In this document: piece by piece, positions 21,102 through 23,894 of the stretch
How positions within the stretch are numbered: position 1 is the stretch's first letter
Layout: each line of letters begins with the position of its first letter
DNA from: a virus
Lineage: Duplodnaviria > Heunggongvirae > Uroviricota > Caudoviricetes
Strand: one strand, 5' to 3'
Virus record (IMG/VR): IMGVR_UViG_3300045988_029198
Coordinates: 1-58,013 of that record
Length of the DNA: 58,013 bases
Position numbers and translations under genes: made by a program
Notes under the pieces: generated by a model
The model's database searches: none
What the model saw: only the letters and a program-made list of their open reading frames with translations
What the model was told of the DNA's origin: nothing

Positions 21102-21476
21102 TTATACCGCTCCAACAGGATGAATAAATGCCATATCATCCCCTAACAATCGTGGGTTTTGACGATCAAGAAGGCGATATTCTTTACCACGTTCATCAAC
21201 CACAACATCACCCCGATCAGGAACAAATCGTGGTTCAAAACTCTGACTATCCATAATTACCATCGTTGTGGTTATTCTGGTCATAGTAGTCGGATCCCAC
21301 TTTTCTAATGGGTAAATATAACCACGACACGTATGCGATTCAGTAACGGTTGTACCCGGTAATGTAGGATTAGACGGGTTGGGAACTGTTATCACACGTT
21401 TTACCGTCAAATCCTCACCTACTTCAGCAAGTGCACGAGTAACACCTTTCAGGACACTTTGACGTTTGTCTGCCAT
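21102..21476 (-). CDS. virion structural protein (head-tail joining candidate)
   Basis: 124 aa; ATG is second codon of track ORF and overlaps upstream stop. Confidence 0.4.
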   Translation of the reverse strand: MADKRQSVLKGVTRALAEVGEDLTVKRVITVPNPSNPTLPGTTVTESHTCRGYIYPLEKWDPTTMTRITTTMVIMDSQSFEPRFVPDRGDVVVDERGKEYRLLDRQNPRLLGDDMAFIHPVGAV

Positions 21477-21886
21477 CACCGTTCACCCTCGTTAAGTGCA
21501 CGACCACCGCTTTCAAGTGTTACAGGTGGGTTGTCGAACTGACCACGTTGAATAGCAGGTTGCATACCAGCGCCAGTTAATGTAGCTCCACCAACACCCA
21601 TAAAACTACCTAACAAACCGCCACCTGAATCAGCGCCAGTATTAATACGTAAAATAAAATCTTTTTTAAGTTTATTCCAGGCGTCTGCTGACTGACTACT
21701 GCTGAGTGAGATCGGACCTACTTTAATGTCAGTATCGTTGCTGGCAATAGACGCCATATAATCACAGAGAGCGACGCAAATACTGAGAGGATTTGTATAA
21801 CCGTTGTCAATGTACCACTGAATTTGTTCATCAGTAACATCAGGGACACTGATCAAATAACGAATACCTTCAACTGTAATAGCCAT
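21476..21886 (-). CDS. virion structural protein (head completion candidate)
   Basis: ATG at codon 59 of track ORF 21476..22060 with AGGTGA RBS; the track N-terminal extension runs through a structured leader and is unlikely to be coding. Confidence 0.4.
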   Translation of the reverse strand: MAITVEGIRYLISVPDVTDEQIQWYIDNGYTNPLSICVALCDYMASIASNDTDIKVGPISLSSSQSADAWNKLKKDFILRINTGADSGGGLLGSFMGVGGATLTGAGMQPAIQRGQFDNPPVTLESGGRALNEGER

Positions 21887-22059
21887 GTGATCACCTGTGA
21901 GAAATGTTTTCGTTATATTAGCACGAAAAAAAGCCGTCTTAAACAGACGGCAAATGGCTCTGGGTGATAATGAGGGTTTTACATAACTGGTCATCCACAC
22001 CTGACGTCCCAACATACCCCTATGCGTGACACGTGAATAACCAGTTATGTAAAACGACA

Positions 22060-22432
22060 CGCAGTTCAGGATGTTTCACAACATGCTTTACCCACGATTT
22101 GCGGCTTTCCCGCCAGCAAGATAAGGATCACCTCCTTATCAGCGAGTGTTTGGGTTGTGGCGGTTGGAATCGAACCAACTCCCATCGGTGCGATGCCGAT
22201 CGCAGTACGTGCAGCGGTCCGCTACATGACTAGTATTTTCACGGTCGCCTATCTGCTAGCTCGCCATTGAGCTTCACCACAACGGAAAGAGCACTGGAAC
22301 TTGGGCTGAGTATTACCGCATGTCTTTCGACTTCGAACCAAGGCTGACATTACCCAATGCTCTTACCTGTTATGTGCCGGTTACGTTTATCCGGCGTCTT
22401 TCGACCGATTAAGTGATAGTGTCTGCTATGCA
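22060..22432 (-). other. ~370-nt untranslated leader / candidate ncRNA with tRNA-like 3' fragment and anti-16S-complementary motif
   Basis: No ORF on the transcribed (minus) strand; T-arm-like GTTGG-TTCGATT-CCAAC plus 7-nt acceptor-like strand at about 22155-22179; TAAGGAGGTGATCC at 22125-22138 (minus). Confidence 0.35.
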
Positions 22433-22480
22433 GTTCTGTCACTGACTTAACAATAGGTCAAGAATAGTTATATGTCAAGC
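22433..22480 (-). promoter_or_regulatory. variant copy of conserved promoter module (ATAACTATTCTTGACC) driving the leader and downstream structural genes
   Basis: Two TTGAC boxes on minus strand about 22456-22478 with TATTGT/CAGAAC -10 candidates. Confidence 0.4.
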
Positions 22481-22811
22481 CTTGTGATTCACACCATTCA
22501 GCAGCGGCACTTTTACTACTAAACGATTCTGAATTCATCGGCATACCCATAACATAAACATTATAGGTTTTTGGCGCATCACGTCGGATTTCAGCCGCAG
22601 TGGTTGATGCCGATTCTTCGGTTGCTACAGTCACTGGTTCTTCAACAGTCGCAGTAGCTGGTTCAATGTGGCGCATACGCACAAGGGCATTTAAAACAGC
22701 CGGGATAGCTTTTGATGTTGATACTTTATCGCCAGCGGACATCTGTTTACCGTTCCACAGCATCGGGCGGGTGAAAACATATTTCAGTGACGGATCATAT
22801 GAATTACGCAT
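22458..22811 (-). CDS. hypothetical protein (head module)
   Basis: ATG at codon 14 of track ORF; GAGG RBS; directly downstream of the MCP terminator. Confidence 0.45.
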   Translation of the reverse strand: MRNSYDPSLKYVFTRPMLWNGKQMSAGDKVSTSKAIPAVLNALVRMRHIEPATATVEEPVTVATEESASTTAAEIRRDAPKTYNVYVMGMPMNSESFSSKSAAAEWCESQGLTYNYS

Positions 22812-22826
22812 GATTTTAACCTCATG

Positions 22827-22853
22827 AAAAAAAGGGGCAGCATAAGCCACCCC
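22827..22853 (-). terminator. imperfect hairpin plus U-run immediately after major capsid gene (probable leaky terminator)
   Basis: GGGG..GC-ttat-GC..CCCC followed by TTTTTTT on minus strand, 16 nt before next start codon. Confidence 0.4.
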
Positions 22854-22874
22854 TTAATGATACCACAGTTGTTA

Positions 22875-23894
22875 TTAAACCGCGTCGTAGAACAGAACGC
22901 CCAGGTCAGGTGCAACCATCTGAACATCAATGGCAAATTCCGCTTCAACGAAATTACCACGACGACCTTCAACACCCGGATAGGTGCGGATAGACGGACC
23001 GTTGTTAACACCCAGATCGATGAACTCGTTCCACACGAAGCCAGCAGCAGCAACAGGTTTCATGTTACCAACAGTCGGTTCAACATAGTTGAGCATCAGC
23101 ACACCAGTTTTAGCAAACTGGAAGTCTGACAGTGGATTGCCGTCACCGTCTTCAACGCCATCAGCAGCCATGTTGACCACTGACTGCATGATTTCCAGTT
23201 CGTCAACTTCCAGCAGTGCGGCCAGTGCCTGTTTAGTCACGATGCCGGGGTTCTGAGTGGTAGAACCACCGTTAATACGGTCAATAACAGCCGGGCTACG
23301 GGTCAGTGCGTCATACACGTCCAGCGTCATCAGTGCTTTGTTCCAGCGACGACCACCGGATGCCAGAGAGAACGCAACACGACGTGACAGGATATCACCA
23401 ATCGGATCGGCATTCGCATTAGACCATTTCAGGAATTGACCCGCGGACGGAGACGTGTCTTTGCCCTGGAAATCAAGACCCCATTTACCAGCAGTCAGGA
23501 ATTTTTCAGCAAAATCCACTTCTTTGTTGATCAGCAACGCATCTGTGGTTACTGCTGACGCTTCCATATCCAGTTGCTGACCGTTCTGAACGTTTGCACG
23601 TTTTTTGTCAGAAATAAAGATACGGATCGCATCGTCATCAACGGTGTAACCCTGGTTTTTGGTTTTGTAACCAATAGTATTAGCAACACCATCTTCGGCA
23701 CGTTTGGAGTTAACCGGACGACCGAAATAACCTTTCGGGTAAGTCAGGAATTTACCAGCAGCCTGGTTAACAGGAACTACCGGGAAATAACGAGTACCGA
23801 CAAACAGTGACGTATCCTGCCAGTAACTTACAGAAAAGTTAGACAGGAATGTATCTGGTGCGCCAACGTCGCGAAAATTCTGTTTGTAACTCAT
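22875..23894 (-). CDS. major capsid protein
   Basis: 339 aa; AAGGAG RBS 8 nt upstream; follows scaffold and decoration-like genes and precedes terminator. Confidence 0.7.
   Translation of the reverse strand: MSYKQNFRDVGAPDTFLSNFSVSYWQDTSLFVGTRYFPVVPVNQAAGKFLTYPKGYFGRPVNSKRAEDGVANTIGYKTKNQGYTVDDDAIRIFISDKKRANVQNGQQLDMEASAVTTDALLINKEVDFAEKFLTAGKWGLDFQGKDTSPSAGQFLKWSNANADPIGDILSRRVAFSLASGGRRWNKALMTLDVYDALTRSPAVIDRINGGSTTQNPGIVTKQALAALLEVDELEIMQSVVNMAADGVEDGDGNPLSDFQFAKTGVLMLNYVEPTVGNMKPVAAAGFVWNEFIDLGVNNGPSIRTYPGVEGRRGNFVEAEFAIDVQMVAPDLGVLFYDAV

Follow-up and report, generated by a model that had tools for sequence, protein, structure and literature searches.

A conserved tRNA-like RNA with an additional arm and a covarying loop palindrome in a non-coding unit of a Sasha-like phage and in other enterobacterial phages

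The window analysed here is the complete 58,013-nucleotide stretch of the virus record IMGVR_UViG_3300045988_029198, which comes from a phage of the Sashavirus/Nonanavirus type (Sasha-like). Between its head genes and its connector/tail genes lies a stretch of 570 nt that is free of open reading frames (22457 to 21887, minus strand), opened by a predicted promoter and closed by a terminator. All of the features flagged at this locus are on the minus strand, from which the neighbouring genes are also read, and they are listed in Table 1. The predicted sigma70-like promoter overlaps the stop codon of the upstream gene (22460–22458), and we infer that transcription starts near 22443. A promoter is annotated at the equivalent position in the relative AVIO78A, and similar TTGACA-17 promoters are found 5' of the homologous RNA in Skate-like phages and at the related loci L149, L025 and L262; across the region, the consensus scan found no excess of promoter-like sites over shuffled sequences. 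The terminator lies 40 nt before the start codon of the next gene (ATG at 21886), a start that is backed by a full-length PHROG match. A terminator is annotated at the equivalent place in phage Sasha, and the weak Rfam "suhB" match seen here (E up to 10) is terminator-like only. The predicted promoter (start at about 22443) and the intrinsic terminator (21933) delimit a non-coding RNA unit of about 510 nt, encoded by the minus strand, and the predicted fold of its leader is more stable than those of shuffled versions (z = -3.7, MFE fold). A first-pass annotation of this DNA had described a variant promoter copy driving an ORF-free leader of about 370 nt. The promoter is indeed a good match to the consensus and the leader is indeed free of ORFs, but the ORF-free stretch is longer than proposed, reaching to the ATG of the next gene, and the reading of the promoter as one of several copies is not supported, as no other copy was found in the whole window at 62% identity or more over 46 nt.

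Table 1. Features of the non-coding unit, in window coordinates and in the order of transcription.
Feature	Position	Strand	Sequence or description	Basis
Sigma70-like promoter	22450..22478	-	TTGACA-17-TATTGT, 10/12 matches	Consensus scan
Promoter -35 element	22478-22473	-	TTGACA
Promoter -10 element	22455-22450	-	TATTGT, after a 17-nt spacer
Module A	22376..22407	-	Two small hairpins, GTC-GAAA-GAC and GCCGG-ATAAACGTAA-CCGGC	Sequence reading, MFE fold
Helix B	22278..22376	-	Overlaps 5' strand of closing helix	MFE fold
Five-arm tRNA-like domain	22154..22283	-		Custom CM, 159.4 bits, E = 6e-51
Closing (acceptor) helix	22283-22275 with 22162-22154	-	9 bp; 7-bp core TGTGGTG (22281-22275) / CGCCACA (22162-22156)
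D-arm	22272-22259	-	GCTC-AATGGC-GAGC
Extra arm	22201..22257	-	About 57 nt, between D-arm and anticodon-like arm (position 26/27)
Palindrome	22229..22234	-	ACUAGU, in extra-arm apical loop; candidate kissing-loop self-pairing site
Anticodon-like arm	22200-22184	-	ATCGG-CATCGCA-CCGAT
T-arm	22179-22163	-	GTTGG-TTCGATT-CCAAC
SD-like hairpin	22120..22140	-	GAUAAGGA-GGUGA-UCCUUAUC; 5' arm and loop hold the 14-mer	MFE fold
Anti-16S 14-mer	22138-22125	-	TAAGGAGGTGATCC, once in window
17-codon TTG ORF	22066..22119	-	3' of SD-like hairpin	ORF present in sequence
GNRA-type hairpin	22071..22084	-	AUGUU-GUGA-AACAU
Helix E	21976..22055	-	About 24-28 bp, GUUUUACAUAACUGGUUAUUCAC… / …GAUGACCAGUUAUGUAAAAC	MFE and centroid folds
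Intrinsic terminator	21926..21951 (hairpin 21951-21933)	-	GCCGUCU-GUUUA-AGACGGC + U7	Terminator scan

The unit is assembled from exchangeable structured modules. Module A is about 85–90% identical to its counterpart in Skate-like Salmonella phages. Helix B is formed by a 5' strand, CACATAAC-A-GG-T-AAGAGCATTG (22376–22355), and a 3' strand, CAGTGCTCTT-T-CC-GTTGTG (22296–22278), which enclose an apical insert of 58 nt (22354–22297). The flanks of this helix are nearly invariant, at least 20 unrelated apical inserts are carried on it among the fetched loci, and a paralogous version in PJ16 is fully compensated; Skate and the N4-like phage St11Ph5 share the insert of the window. Closer to the terminator, the GNRA-type hairpin recurs in L149 as AUGUU-GCGA-AACAU and in L025 and L262 as ACGUU-GYGA-AACGU, with a compensatory change from U-A to C-G. 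The motif at the apex of helix E, AUAGGGGUAUGUUGGGACG (22023–22005), recurs at a hairpin apex in Skate-like phages and St11Ph5.

Just 3' of the tRNA-like domain, the unit contains 14 nt perfectly complementary to the 3' end of the E. coli 16S rRNA (…GGAUCACCUCCUUA-3'). This segment and the 17-codon ORF behind it had both been pointed out in the first-pass annotation, and both are present in the sequence. The 14-mer was obtained in none of 100 dinucleotide shuffles, and the next-longest exact complement of the 16S tail in the window is 8 nt. Its core recurs at the homologous position of three diverged loci, as AGGAGGUGAU in L149 and L262 and as AGGGGGUGAU in L025, the stem being different (ACAGGA/UCCUGU). 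These three loci have no start codon, and have early stops, at the place matching the TTG ORF, which, judging by sequence, is probably not a gene. An ordinary ribosome-binding site can be rejected for the 14-mer because no conserved start codon or ORF follows it: only the 17-codon TTG ORF is found there, and it is not conserved in L149, L025 or L262. The ribosome-loading element that the first-pass annotation had suggested may still be present in some other form. A scan of viral contigs with the 14-mer TCCCAGCGGCAGGG gave nearly all chance matches, from which filtering retained L262.

The centre of the unit is occupied by a tRNA-like domain with five arms, the length of which is about 126–130 nt. 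The T-loop TTCGAYT and the D-loop GG are invariant in all 44 of the aligned copies and the acceptor and T stems covary; with a 7-bp acceptor and a 5-bp T stem, the domain has the elbow of a canonical tRNA. Its anticodon loop departs from the canonical form: it reads YAKCGCA in essentially all copies, with A33 and C37 where decoding tRNAs almost universally have U33 and a purine at position 37. It is uncertain whether the domain is competent for RNase P cleavage or aminoacylation, because a CCA follows the acceptor stem in some subfamilies only and U8 is replaced by A. ARAGORN calls a tRNA-Arg (GCG or UCG) in 31 of the 44 copies once the extra arm has been deleted in silico, versus none of the 44 native copies, and the domain is, thus, clearly derived from a tRNA. 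This central module is a tRNA mimic derived from tRNA-Arg and competent to adopt the L shape, with a non-decoding anticodon loop (A33, C37). In the two loops that are best conserved in the family, the copy in the window differs by changes of its own (CAUCGCA for CAGCGCA, and GCACGUA for GCGCGUA).

Several earlier observations find their place in this fold. The T-arm-like hairpin reported in the first-pass annotation is the T-arm of Table 1. The 7-nt acceptor-like strand does have a 5' partner about 120 nt upstream, but the helix that they form is really 9 bp long; this spacing, judged too great for a normal cloverleaf, is accounted for by the arm of about 57 nt at the 26/27 junction. The description as a tRNA-like 3' fragment does not hold, as a D-arm and an anticodon-like arm are also present, and that of a tRNA remnant is correct as regards tRNA ancestry but not as regards decay, the fold being complete, selected and equipped with a conserved additional arm. 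The idea of an attP site or a tRNA 3' fragment is ruled out by the full 5' half with its covarying D-arm. For genome annotation, the lesson is that phage "tRNA 3' fragments" need not be attP remnants.

At the base of the extra arm is a short helix (GCAG/CTGC); above it come an asymmetric internal loop, which is conserved and in which AUA stands opposite GCACGUA (GCGCGUA in the family consensus), an upper helix (GGCG-A-CCG / CGG-AC-CGCT) and an apical loop of about 20 nt. Double-sided changes have occurred at eight of nine pairs in the upper helix and three of five in the basal one, and many of the pairs are G·U, which makes the structure specific to the minus strand. The hexamer in the apical loop is self-complementary in 44 of 44 aligned copies despite changes in its sequence (ACTAGT, ACCGGT, TCTAGA, TCCGGA, TCGCGA and GCTAGC), and two of its three "pairs" covary: column 62/67 is UA in 22 copies, AU in 18 and GC in 4, and column 64/65 is UA in 31, GC in 8, CG in 3 and UG in 2. 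A covarying self-complementary hexamer in an apical loop is what is expected, at the level of sequence, of a kissing-loop element, and this palindrome suggests that kissing-loop dimers may form, although a palindrome of 6 nt could have another cause. Pairing between the flanks of the palindrome within the loop was rejected, as it is not conserved between subfamilies, and a pairing between CUAG of the loop and GCUAG of the junction was ruled out, as the junction is invariant whereas the loop also occurs as CGCG and CCGG. The GCGC of the anticodon-like loop and that of the internal loop of the extra arm are both invariant, leaving no covariation with which to check for a tertiary pairing, and the two private loop changes of the window copy do not compensate each other in any of the registers tried.

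The domain is a widespread, previously unannotated RNA family of enterobacterial phages, including lambda-type N-gene leaders. At least 70 distinct copies were found, in unrelated phages and prophages. For the analysis of covariation, 44 non-redundant copies were placed in an unfitted MAFFT alignment (A2), in which 93% of the cells are paired, versus 34–44% with slid partners. Double-sided changes were found at 23 of 38 pairs, and the observed values were attained in none of 500 shuffles. The same five arms were recovered de novo by RNAalifold, with compensatory changes at 20 of 34 pairs, and moving the search anchor off the anticodon-like arm brought out covariation there (ATCAG/CTGAT, ATTGG/CCAAT, ATAGG/CCTAT). 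The alignment contains about 90 G·U cells, and the fold is therefore specific to the minus strand. The alignment and the RNAalifold result bear out the structured regulatory RNA of the first-pass annotation as a conserved, covarying RNA structure. The covariance-model check proposed there gave a divided answer: no Rfam family, but 159 bits for the window copy with a model built from its relatives.

At the gathering cut-off, Rfam matches nothing in the window; in 13 related loci the tRNA-like copies are unmatched and canonical tRNAs alone score, and the element was not found in Rfam 15 or in the literature searched. A negative based on Rfam is misleading here, because Rfam has no family for this element. 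At E up to 10, the window yields, besides the suhB match, only tRNA-Sec (RF01852), its best match, which covers just 22155–22227 and scores 22.7 bits where the cut-off is 47 (E = 0.058); it was rejected as sub-threshold and lacking a UCA anticodon. A canonical tRNA (RF00005) was rejected on the length of about 126–130 nt, the five arms, the ARAGORN score of 0/44 for native copies and the absence of a match at the Rfam gathering threshold; ARAGORN finds no tRNA gene in the window. A tmRNA or two-piece tmRNA was rejected with a negative ARAGORN tmRNA search and no Rfam match, and YrlA or another bacterial Y RNA with no Rfam match at E up to 10 and an acceptor closed by 5' and 3' strands. Current annotation mostly leaves such stretches blank or lays spurious small ORFs across them. 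The element was unannotated in all 193 of the E. coli copies seen, and only one of 92 phage records with the element has an annotation over the domain, its 3' 58 nt being labelled as tRNA-Ser.

The genomic contexts of the domain are varied. In lambda-type prophages, it sits 24–30 nt before the N start codon, on the basal stem known from the lambda N leader, in the interval from nutL to the ribosome-binding site of N. It is also found in Q–holin leaders, lying between tR' and holin in HK75-type phages, and at the start of tRNA clusters of phages, beside Ile, Arg(UCU) and Met/Ile(CAU) tRNAs. It immediately precedes genuine tRNAs in Skate, gmqsjt-1 and L128, and in L262 its slot is occupied by a canonical tRNA(CAU) with an identical acceptor stem. 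The units of L149, L025 and L262 run from promoter to terminator with no co-oriented gene behind them, and in Skate-like phages the unit is antisense to its neighbours. A strong SD is found 15–30 nt downstream of many copies, and a terminator at +10 nt after those of the L028/L031 type. No partner protein is conserved beside the element. In most close relatives of the window phage (Sasha, AVIO78A, PDP46 and PJ16), the stem bears other inserts, that of the Sasha type being 40 nt long, in place of the tRNA-like body, so phages of this type can do without the domain.

Among the matches listed, there are many seszw genomes of 36–46 kb, apparently genome-reduced derivatives, each with the element. 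The paper on the reduced seszw derivatives contains no discussion of tRNAs or intergenic regions. The presence of the element in these genomes says little about its essentiality, because it is flanked by essential structural genes.

The best explanation of the element, to which we give a probability of about one half, is that of a processed, non-decoding tRNA mimic that dimerises and titrates a host factor; we infer this function from its structure and contexts. The unit would be transcribed by the host RNA polymerase, and the tRNA-shaped domain would then be released from the precursor by host enzymes that process tRNAs and double-stranded RNA. RNase P would act on the 5' side of the domain and RNase E or Z on its 3' side. 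RNase III would cut the two long helices of this unit, B and E, and, in the relatives found in lambda N leaders, the extended basal stem. The product would be a stable RNA of about 130 nt, unable to decode, two copies of which could pair by way of the palindrome in the loop of the extra arm, and the dimer may occupy or titrate a host factor that recognises the tRNA shape. The anti-16S segment would most likely capture a 30S subunit, or else stay masked in its hairpin, and could so protect or control the 3' product of processing, much as a STAB-SD would. The link to tRNA processing is drawn because the domain precedes genuine tRNAs and a tRNA(CAU) can fill its slot. That to RNase III is drawn because the domain shares the basal stem of the lambda N leader in lambda-type prophages and because the stem extension of class I copies covaries. 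Stand-alone expression is proposed because the L149, L025 and L262 units lack co-oriented genes and the Skate-like units are antisense.

The element might instead be a cis-acting leader that governs the downstream connector/tail genes by attenuation, antitermination or translational control, which we consider unlikely. It would operate through competing pairings between CACAUAAC (segment 1), GUUGUGG (segment 2) and CCACAAC (segment 3) that gate the terminator at 21951–21933. The position of the unit directly 5' of a terminator and co-oriented structural genes would fit, as would the upstream competitor for the 5' strand of the closing helix, found in both classes of the family, the regulatory nature of both the nutL–N and the tR'–holin leaders, and the strong SD within 15–30 nt after many copies. 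Such control is, however, difficult to reconcile with stand-alone units that have a strong terminator and no co-oriented gene (L149, L025, L262), with units antisense to their neighbours in Skate-like phages and with a terminator only 10 nt after L028/L031-type copies, and a simple attenuator needs neither a conserved extra arm nor a palindrome nor an anticodon-like loop.

It is very unlikely that the domain is a neutral relic, that is, a decaying tRNA pseudogene or a recombination scar, with the 14-mer as the orphaned ribosome-binding site of a lost gene. The absence of the domain from the closest relatives, the cassette-like shuffling of modules, the genuine gene that follows the equivalent SD directly in many relatives and the private changes of the window copy in conserved loops are all compatible with decay. 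Pseudogenes do not, however, display 93% pairing, 23 compensated pairs and at least 70 distinct variants, or an invariant non-tRNA loop and a palindrome held through double changes in 44 of 44 copies. Moreover, the 14-nt SD far exceeds the real ribosome-binding sites of this genome (8 nt at most), and diverged units, likewise without an ORF, retain its core.

Equally improbable is a role at the DNA level, in which the inverted flanks of helix B and of the closing helix would be targets of recombination or of an endonuclease for cassette exchange, and the RNA folds would be incidental. The invariance of the flanks around hypervariable centres, the different cassettes found on the same stem, both in close relatives and between lambda and L010, and the frequency of HNH/homing endonuclease genes in these phages could all be explained in this way. 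However, the tRNA-like domain tolerates some 90 G·U pairs, each of which would turn into an A·C mismatch in a cruciform or on the opposite strand, the orientation always follows transcription (the same strand as N, holin and the tRNAs), and no recombinase is consistently linked to the element. For helix B alone, this explanation could still be true. Finally, a functional tRNA-Arg reading a rare arginine codon, its extra arm removed or tolerated in vivo, might be imagined from the ARAGORN calls (GCG or UCG) upon arm deletion, the location in tRNA clusters (Ile, Arg(UCU), Met/Ile(CAU)) and the canonical tRNA in the slot of L262, but it is extremely unlikely given A33 and C37 in essentially all copies (loop YAKCGCA), a CCA that is not conserved, the rejection of the native sequence by ARAGORN and Rfam, and an arm with conserved loops of its own and a covarying palindrome, needless in a discarded intron; we know of no bacterial splicing system for a 57-nt insert at position 26/27.

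The reading as a dimeric, non-decoding tRNA mimic has a bolder form, which is speculative and distinctly unlikely. The element would then represent a new class of RNA effector in enterobacterial phages, a tRNA-Arg mimic serving as a decoy or inhibitor of a host factor that reads the tRNA shape, and released by host RNases from highly transcribed leaders, namely pL–N, pR'–late and stand-alone units like that of the window. Among the candidates for this factor would be an anti-phage nuclease that cleaves tRNAs, an aminoacyl-tRNA synthetase, a modification enzyme, RelA and the ribosomal A site. If this were true, the lambda-type nutL–N leader, studied more closely than any other regulatory leader in molecular biology, would double as an RNA delivery vehicle in many natural relatives. 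If the inference of a processed mimic holds, a well-supported structured-RNA family is added to the enterobacterial phages, a tRNA-shaped RNA is linked to classical regulatory leaders (nutL–N, Q–holin), and the covariation that preserves the loop palindrome points to an obligate homodimer of RNA on a tRNA scaffold, which, if true, would be of interest both for RNA structural biology and for the phage–host conflict over tRNAs. A simple experimental system is offered, for example, by HK75 on E. coli K-12.

Among known systems, phage tRNA-Arg genes, such as those of the ileZ-argN-argO cluster of 933W, resemble the domain in their tRNA-sized acceptor, D-, anticodon- and T-arms, intact T-loop and D-loop GG, and the rare-codon tRNA clusters of lambdoid phages share its niches, which lie in tRNA clusters and in the late leader that separates Q from the lysis genes. 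They differ from the domain, which has a 57-nt arm at position 26/27, A33, C37, A8 and an unconserved CCA. Direct homology with ileZ-argN-argO was rejected, as these genes score as generic tRNAs only: the custom CM gives 25.6 bits for ileZ of 933W versus 150–170 bits for members of the family. RNase III cuts the hairpin of the lambda N leader. L010-type prophages have flanks identical to those of this leader (GCTTTGGGGTGTG… and …CACACCACCAAAGCTAACTGACAGGAGAATCCAGATG) and the tRNA-like body stands in place of the top of the lambda hairpin, of about 90 nt, in a position just 5' of an SD that is shared with the window copy. In class I (L010 and the rest), the leader and trailer lengthen the basal stem by 10–15 covarying base pairs (z down to -5.7). 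The window copy differs in having no such extension, its flank duplex being no better than shuffles (z = +1.0 for L132, which has identical flanks), and in not lying upstream of N, as no N gene follows it. Lambda itself has no tRNA-like body and no match to the custom CM.

YrlA and the tRNA-like domain of tmRNA are, like the present domain, parts of non-decoding RNAs that keep the elbow of acceptor, T-arm and D-loop in combination with other domains. Unlike this domain, which has an unpermuted topology, YrlA is circularly permuted with respect to tRNA and carries a stem that binds Ro/Rsr, and tmRNA has pseudoknots and a tag ORF. STAB-SDs are SD-like stabilisers of mRNA without an associated start codon, as in cryIIIA of Bacillus. 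The 14-mer is like them in its very strong complementarity to 16S rRNA and in having no conserved ORF behind it; it differs in being partly sequestered in a hairpin, and STAB-SDs were described in Gram-positives. IpeX and the Pas sRNAs are encoded close to the lysis genes in lambdoid prophages. A relationship with IpeX of DLP12 was rejected on the location, as the custom CM found no copy in the Q–nmpC region of K-12 (573500–577300; best score 9 bits), a slice in which no ipeX feature is listed. The Pas sRNAs, which are terminator-bearing RNAs of about 84 nt (10.64898/2026.05.13.724894), were rejected as different molecules in a similar context. GOLLD and ROOL are described as multi-domain RNAs of phages and prophages that are often near tRNA genes and self-associate by loop–loop contacts (10.1101/2024.12.08.627333). 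The present unit is similar to them as a multi-domain structured RNA carried by phages, often beside tRNA genes; it shows no sequence or CM similarity to them and is smaller, enterobacterial and built of exchangeable modules. The kissing loops of the HIV-1 DIS type have a loop of 9 nt rather than about 20 nt and an unrelated biological context, and the dimer proposed here is a candidate predicted from sequence; what they share with the extra arm is a self-complementary stretch of 6 nt in the middle of an apical loop, which, in this phage family, is maintained by covariation.

The window derives from a siphophage of the Sashavirus/Nonanavirus type. A 601-nt query around the finding has blastn matches of about 99% identity in the Salmonella phages Sasha, Sergei and Solent and the Escherichia phages AVIO78A, PDP46, PJ16 and Bas82, covering only 52–69% of its length. 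The genes at this locus are on the minus strand, and their PHROG-based order identifies a non-coding stretch inside the structural module (see the table). The first-pass annotation described an ORF-free leader of ~370 nt driven by a variant promoter copy; the sigma70-like promoter and the lack of ORFs were confirmed, but the stretch extends over ~570 nt to a terminator, and a second copy of the promoter occurs nowhere in the window. As another terminator lies right behind the gene for the major head protein, the gene of unknown function and the RNA unit are flanked by two terminators within the structural module. The true start of the 136-aa gene, with AGGTGATC just before it, is based on a full-length PHROG match (1–136 of 136). 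A mechanical 194-aa GTG ORF (21476–22060, minus strand) runs through the long helix E and the terminator, as does a 172-aa CDS annotated in AVIO78A; several small CDSs that the annotations of Skate, INT55, PJ16 and PDP46 place across this unit are probably spurious.

Features of the RNA unit and its surroundings (positions in the window)
Feature	Position	Strand	Basis or remark
Major head protein	22875-23894	minus	PHROG match
Intrinsic terminator, strong	22832-22855	minus	directly 3' of major head protein gene
Protein of unknown function	22458-22850	minus	PHROG-based order
Promoter TTGACA-17-TATTGT	22478-22450	minus	sigma70-like; sequence scan
Non-coding stretch	21887-22457	minus	between unknown-function gene and 136-aa gene
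Helix B	22376-22278	minus
tRNA-like domain	22283-22154	minus	five arms
Complement of acceptor-like strand, TGTGGTG	22281-22275	minus
Extra arm	22257-22201	minus
T-arm hairpin GTTGG-TTCGATT-CCAAC	22179-22163	minus
Acceptor-like strand CGCCACA	22162-22156	minus
Hairpin GAUAAGGA-GGUGA-UCCUUAUC	22140-22120	minus	MFE fold; 5' arm and loop form the anti-16S segment
Anti-16S 14-mer	22138-22125	minus
17-codon TTG ORF	22119-22066	minus
GNRA hairpin, conserved	22084-22071	minus	compensated in L025 and L262 (U-A to C-G)
Helix E, very long	22055-21976	minus	between GNRA hairpin and terminator
Intrinsic terminator, good	21951-21933	minus	closes the ORF-free stretch
136-aa protein	start ATG 21886	minus	family profile matched end to end
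Head-closure protein	21102-21479	minus	PHROG match

What had been taken for a tRNA-like 3' fragment is a whole domain, complete, five-armed and under selection. The T-arm-like hairpin, the acceptor-like strand and the complement of this strand ~120 nt upstream are all present, and the flagged observation is genuine and more interesting than the account first given of it. The suggested Rfam scan gave no match in the window at gathering thresholds, and ARAGORN found neither a tRNA nor a tmRNA there; at E values up to 10, Rfam returned only tRNA-Sec (22.7 bits, for a cut-off of 47).

The segment 22154–22407 is ~91% identical to a non-coding stretch of Skate-like Salmonella phages (blastn), and sub-segments of it are found separately in lambdoid phages (HK75), Pantoea phage PdC23, N4-like podophages (St11Ph5, PhAPEC5) and T1-like Klebsiella phages. 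Of 5426 complete E. coli genomes, 175 carry the tRNA-like sub-segment, at 193 places in all, none of them annotated. In lambdoid phages, the domain is located between Q/pR'/tR' and the holin gene; the Skate copy is just 5' of a genuine tRNA-Ile and belongs to a unit that runs antisense to the tail genes on either side. A large subfamily has the gene for the N antiterminator (Pfam N36, 1.4e-25; N_peptide) beginning 24–30 nt downstream, the order at one such locus (L010) being pL, nutL (boxA, boxB), tRNA-like domain, SD, N. Lambda has the same flanks as L010, GGCTTTGGGGTGTGTG … CACACACCACCAAAGCTAACTGACAGGAGAATCCAGATG, but a different interior of ~90 nt; the lambda N-leader hairpin is the established RNase III processing site through which N translation is modulated. 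In this N-leader class (class I), the acceptor helix is lengthened by 10–15 bp formed by leader and trailer, which covary (ΔG −16 to −26 kcal/mol, z down to −5.7). The window belongs to a second class without this extension (z about 0 to +2), in which the 5' flank of the domain is the 3' strand of helix B.

The five Sashaviruses compared are essentially identical in promoter, 5' leader and the whole part from CCAAACACTCGC to the terminator, but differ in the interior: the 9-bp closing helix is retained in Sasha and PJ16, where it encloses an insert of ~40 nt, a different hairpin is present in AVIO78A and PDP46, and PDP46 and PJ16 carry duplicated or alternative modules. Two other loci, L149 and L025, contain stand-alone promoter-to-terminator units of ~550 nt with the module order of the window. 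Genuine tRNAs directly follow the domain in L128 (Arg-UCU and Met/Ile-CAU) and gmqsjt-1 (Arg-UCU and Ile), and a canonical tRNA(CAU) with an identical acceptor stem occupies its slot in L262. The domain is, in short, a cassette in phage leader RNAs. It could be a cis-regulatory leader, but this is rather unlikely, the stand-alone and antisense units speaking against a purely cis role. In a further subfamily (L011, L015, L052, L092, L109, L127, L146 and others), the domain is followed by a hairpin (CCCGC-AUCA-GCGGG), an SD and then a slot that unrelated small ORFs of many kinds occupy and that resembles a hypervariable 'moron' site.

Pattern scans of IMG/VR used the anticodon-like arm as anchor first and, to avoid the bias of that choice, the D-arm next; each scan had more than 119 contigs among the matches listed, and these contigs contain at least ~70–90 distinct copies. 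Forty-four copies with a mutual identity below 96.5% were aligned with MAFFT without structural guidance (alignment A2). When an acceptor stem, D-arm, two-helix extra arm, anticodon-like arm and T-arm are placed on A2, 93.0% of cells are paired, versus 34–44% with partners slid by 1–3 columns. Double-sided changes affect 23 of 38 pairs (13.6 ± 1.5 in shuffles, with none of 500 as high), and the covariation score is 0.345 versus 0.129, with controls that leave part of the phylogenetic signal. RNAalifold recovered the same arms de novo, with the closing helix lengthened to 9 bp and 20 of 34 pairs compensatory. Compensation is also evident on direct comparison of the T-arm (GTTGG/CCAAC in the window, GCAGG/CCTGT in Skate, GCCGG/CCGGC in HK75), and the anticodon-like arm covaries with the anchor moved (ATCAG/CTGAT, ATTGG/CCAAT, ATAGG/CCTAT). 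This covariation makes a neutral relic improbable. A recombination site acting at the DNA level is equally improbable, given the ~90 G·U cells in A2, which restrict the fold to the strand that is transcribed. With a covariance model derived from A2, the window has a single match (22128–22293, 159 bits), genuine tRNAs score 14–31 bits, and lambda, AVIO78A and the DLP12 region of K-12 have no significant match. The domain is very probably a real, selected structured RNA of a new family. A full-scoring copy (168.9 bits) lies at 4295–4460 of a 9.7-kb contig from a non-enterobacterial MAG (L160, Cellvibrionaceae, JAUVQU010000080.1), which could reflect contamination, mis-binning or a wider host range.

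The anticodon-like loop is constant (YAKCGCA); with A33 and C37, it is non-decoding under established tRNA rules, so a decoding tRNA with an intron is highly implausible. In-silico removal of the extra arm (A2 columns 38–95) raised ARAGORN calls from 0 to 31 of 44 copies, as tRNA-Arg (GCG 27, TCG 4). The domain therefore has a tRNA-Arg-type body, into which a 57-nt arm is inserted precisely between positions 26 and 27. No part varies more or is better compensated than the upper helix of this arm, with double-sided changes in 8 of its 9 pairs; the internal loop is conserved (AUA vs GCGCGUA). A hexamer in the middle of the ~20-nt apical loop is self-complementary in all 44 sequences, though it varies (ACUAGU, ACCGGU, UCUAGA, UCCGGA, UCGCGA, GCUAGC; outer pair UA 22, AU 18, GC 4; inner pair UA 31, GC 8, CG 3, UG 2). 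As a 6-nt palindrome is unable to pair inside a single loop, a loop-loop (kissing) homodimer would be the simplest base-pairing explanation. Other candidate partners of the hexamer, checked by eye, displayed no covariation.

Downstream of the domain, the 14-mer TAAGGAGGTGATCC, complementary to the E. coli 16S rRNA 3' end, occurs once in the window and in none of 100 shuffles, the next-longest exact complement of the 16S tail in all 58 kb, real gene starts included, being 8 nt. Both L149 and L262 keep its core, AGGAGGUGAU, at the homologous position (AGGGGGUGAU in L025), and the L149 hairpin stem differs yet is compensated (ACAGGA/UCCUGU). No start codon or ORF follows the core in these three loci, so the 17-codon ORF is not conserved and the segment is no ordinary ribosome-binding site. 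Many other family members have a real SD and gene at the same distance after the domain.

The flanks of helix B, GCACAYAACAGGTAAGAGCATT … AGTGCTCTTWYCGTTGTGG, are nearly invariant across unrelated phages (L003, L284, L008 and others), and its apex accommodates at least 20 unrelated inserts of 31–84 nt, a few of which contain hairpins resembling a T-loop (AGCGG-TTCGATT-CCGCT). B units are arranged in tandem in a prophage of E. coli 55989 and also in PJ16, which has a fully compensated paralogue as well. In both classes, the 5' strand of the closing helix has an upstream complement: CACAUAAC of helix B in the window (strands 22376–22369, 22283–22278 and 22162–22154) and, in N leaders (L150, L127, lambda L164), a CCAAAGC-loop-GCUUUGG hairpin covarying as CCAAAACA/UGUUUUGG. 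Pairing 1:2 therefore competes with the 2:3 closing helix, and this could be a folding switch. The apex of helix E bears AUAGGGGUAUGUUGGGACG (22005–22023, minus strand), a motif with no Rfam family that recurs atop a hairpin of Skate-like Salmonella phages (UGUAGGGGUAUGUAUGGGUUACG within AUCCAGC…GCUGGAU) and in N4-like St11Ph5 (UAUAGGGGUAUGUAGGGGCUACG). The whole leader fold has z = −3.7 relative to shuffles. In St11Ph5 (L008, ~1500–2070), tRNA-Ala is followed by a ~1.4-kb non-coding region that holds the helix-B unit of the window in identical form, as well as several odd minimal tRNA-like units with a T-arm and acceptor helix, sometimes with CCA (e.g. TTCCGGTG…CTGGTTCGAGTCCAGACGCCGGAACCA), none called by ARAGORN and one scoring 17.5 bits with the covariance model.

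The data show a fold that is conserved, strand-specific and tRNA-shaped and has an additional arm; it is co-located with and replaceable by true tRNAs, placed on the lambda-type N-leader stem and also found in stand-alone promoter–terminator units. On this base, we propose a processing and tRNA-mimic mechanism, to which, as a whole, we assign a probability of about 0.5. The unit would be transcribed by host RNA polymerase, the domain excised by RNase P and RNase E or Z, like neighbouring tRNAs, and the long helices cut by RNase III (B and E in the window, the extended basal stem in class I). The product would be a ~130-nt non-decoding tRNA mimic, dimeric through its palindromic loop, that may engage a host factor recognizing tRNA shape. 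The anti-16S segment may bind the 30S subunit, or be masked by its hairpin, such that the 3' product would be protected or controlled.

No description of the domain was found in the open literature, in which 'tRNA-like' plus 'lambdoid' retrieved only attP-type mentions and a preprint on Pas sRNAs, which are different, 84-nt Hfq-type sRNAs (10.64898/2026.05.13.724894). One depositor labelled only its 3' 58 nt, as "tRNA-Ser". The domain fails membership tests for tRNA, tRNA-Sec, YrlA, the tmRNA tRNA-like domain and viral tRNA-like structures, the last three of which are tRNA mimics that its proposed action would resemble. With the lambda N-leader hairpin, its relatives share a basal stem that the window copy lacks. 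The domain is a well-supported new variant of tRNA mimics within a modular phage RNA unit, accompanied by two unusual features, a candidate dimer signature and an anti-16S element.
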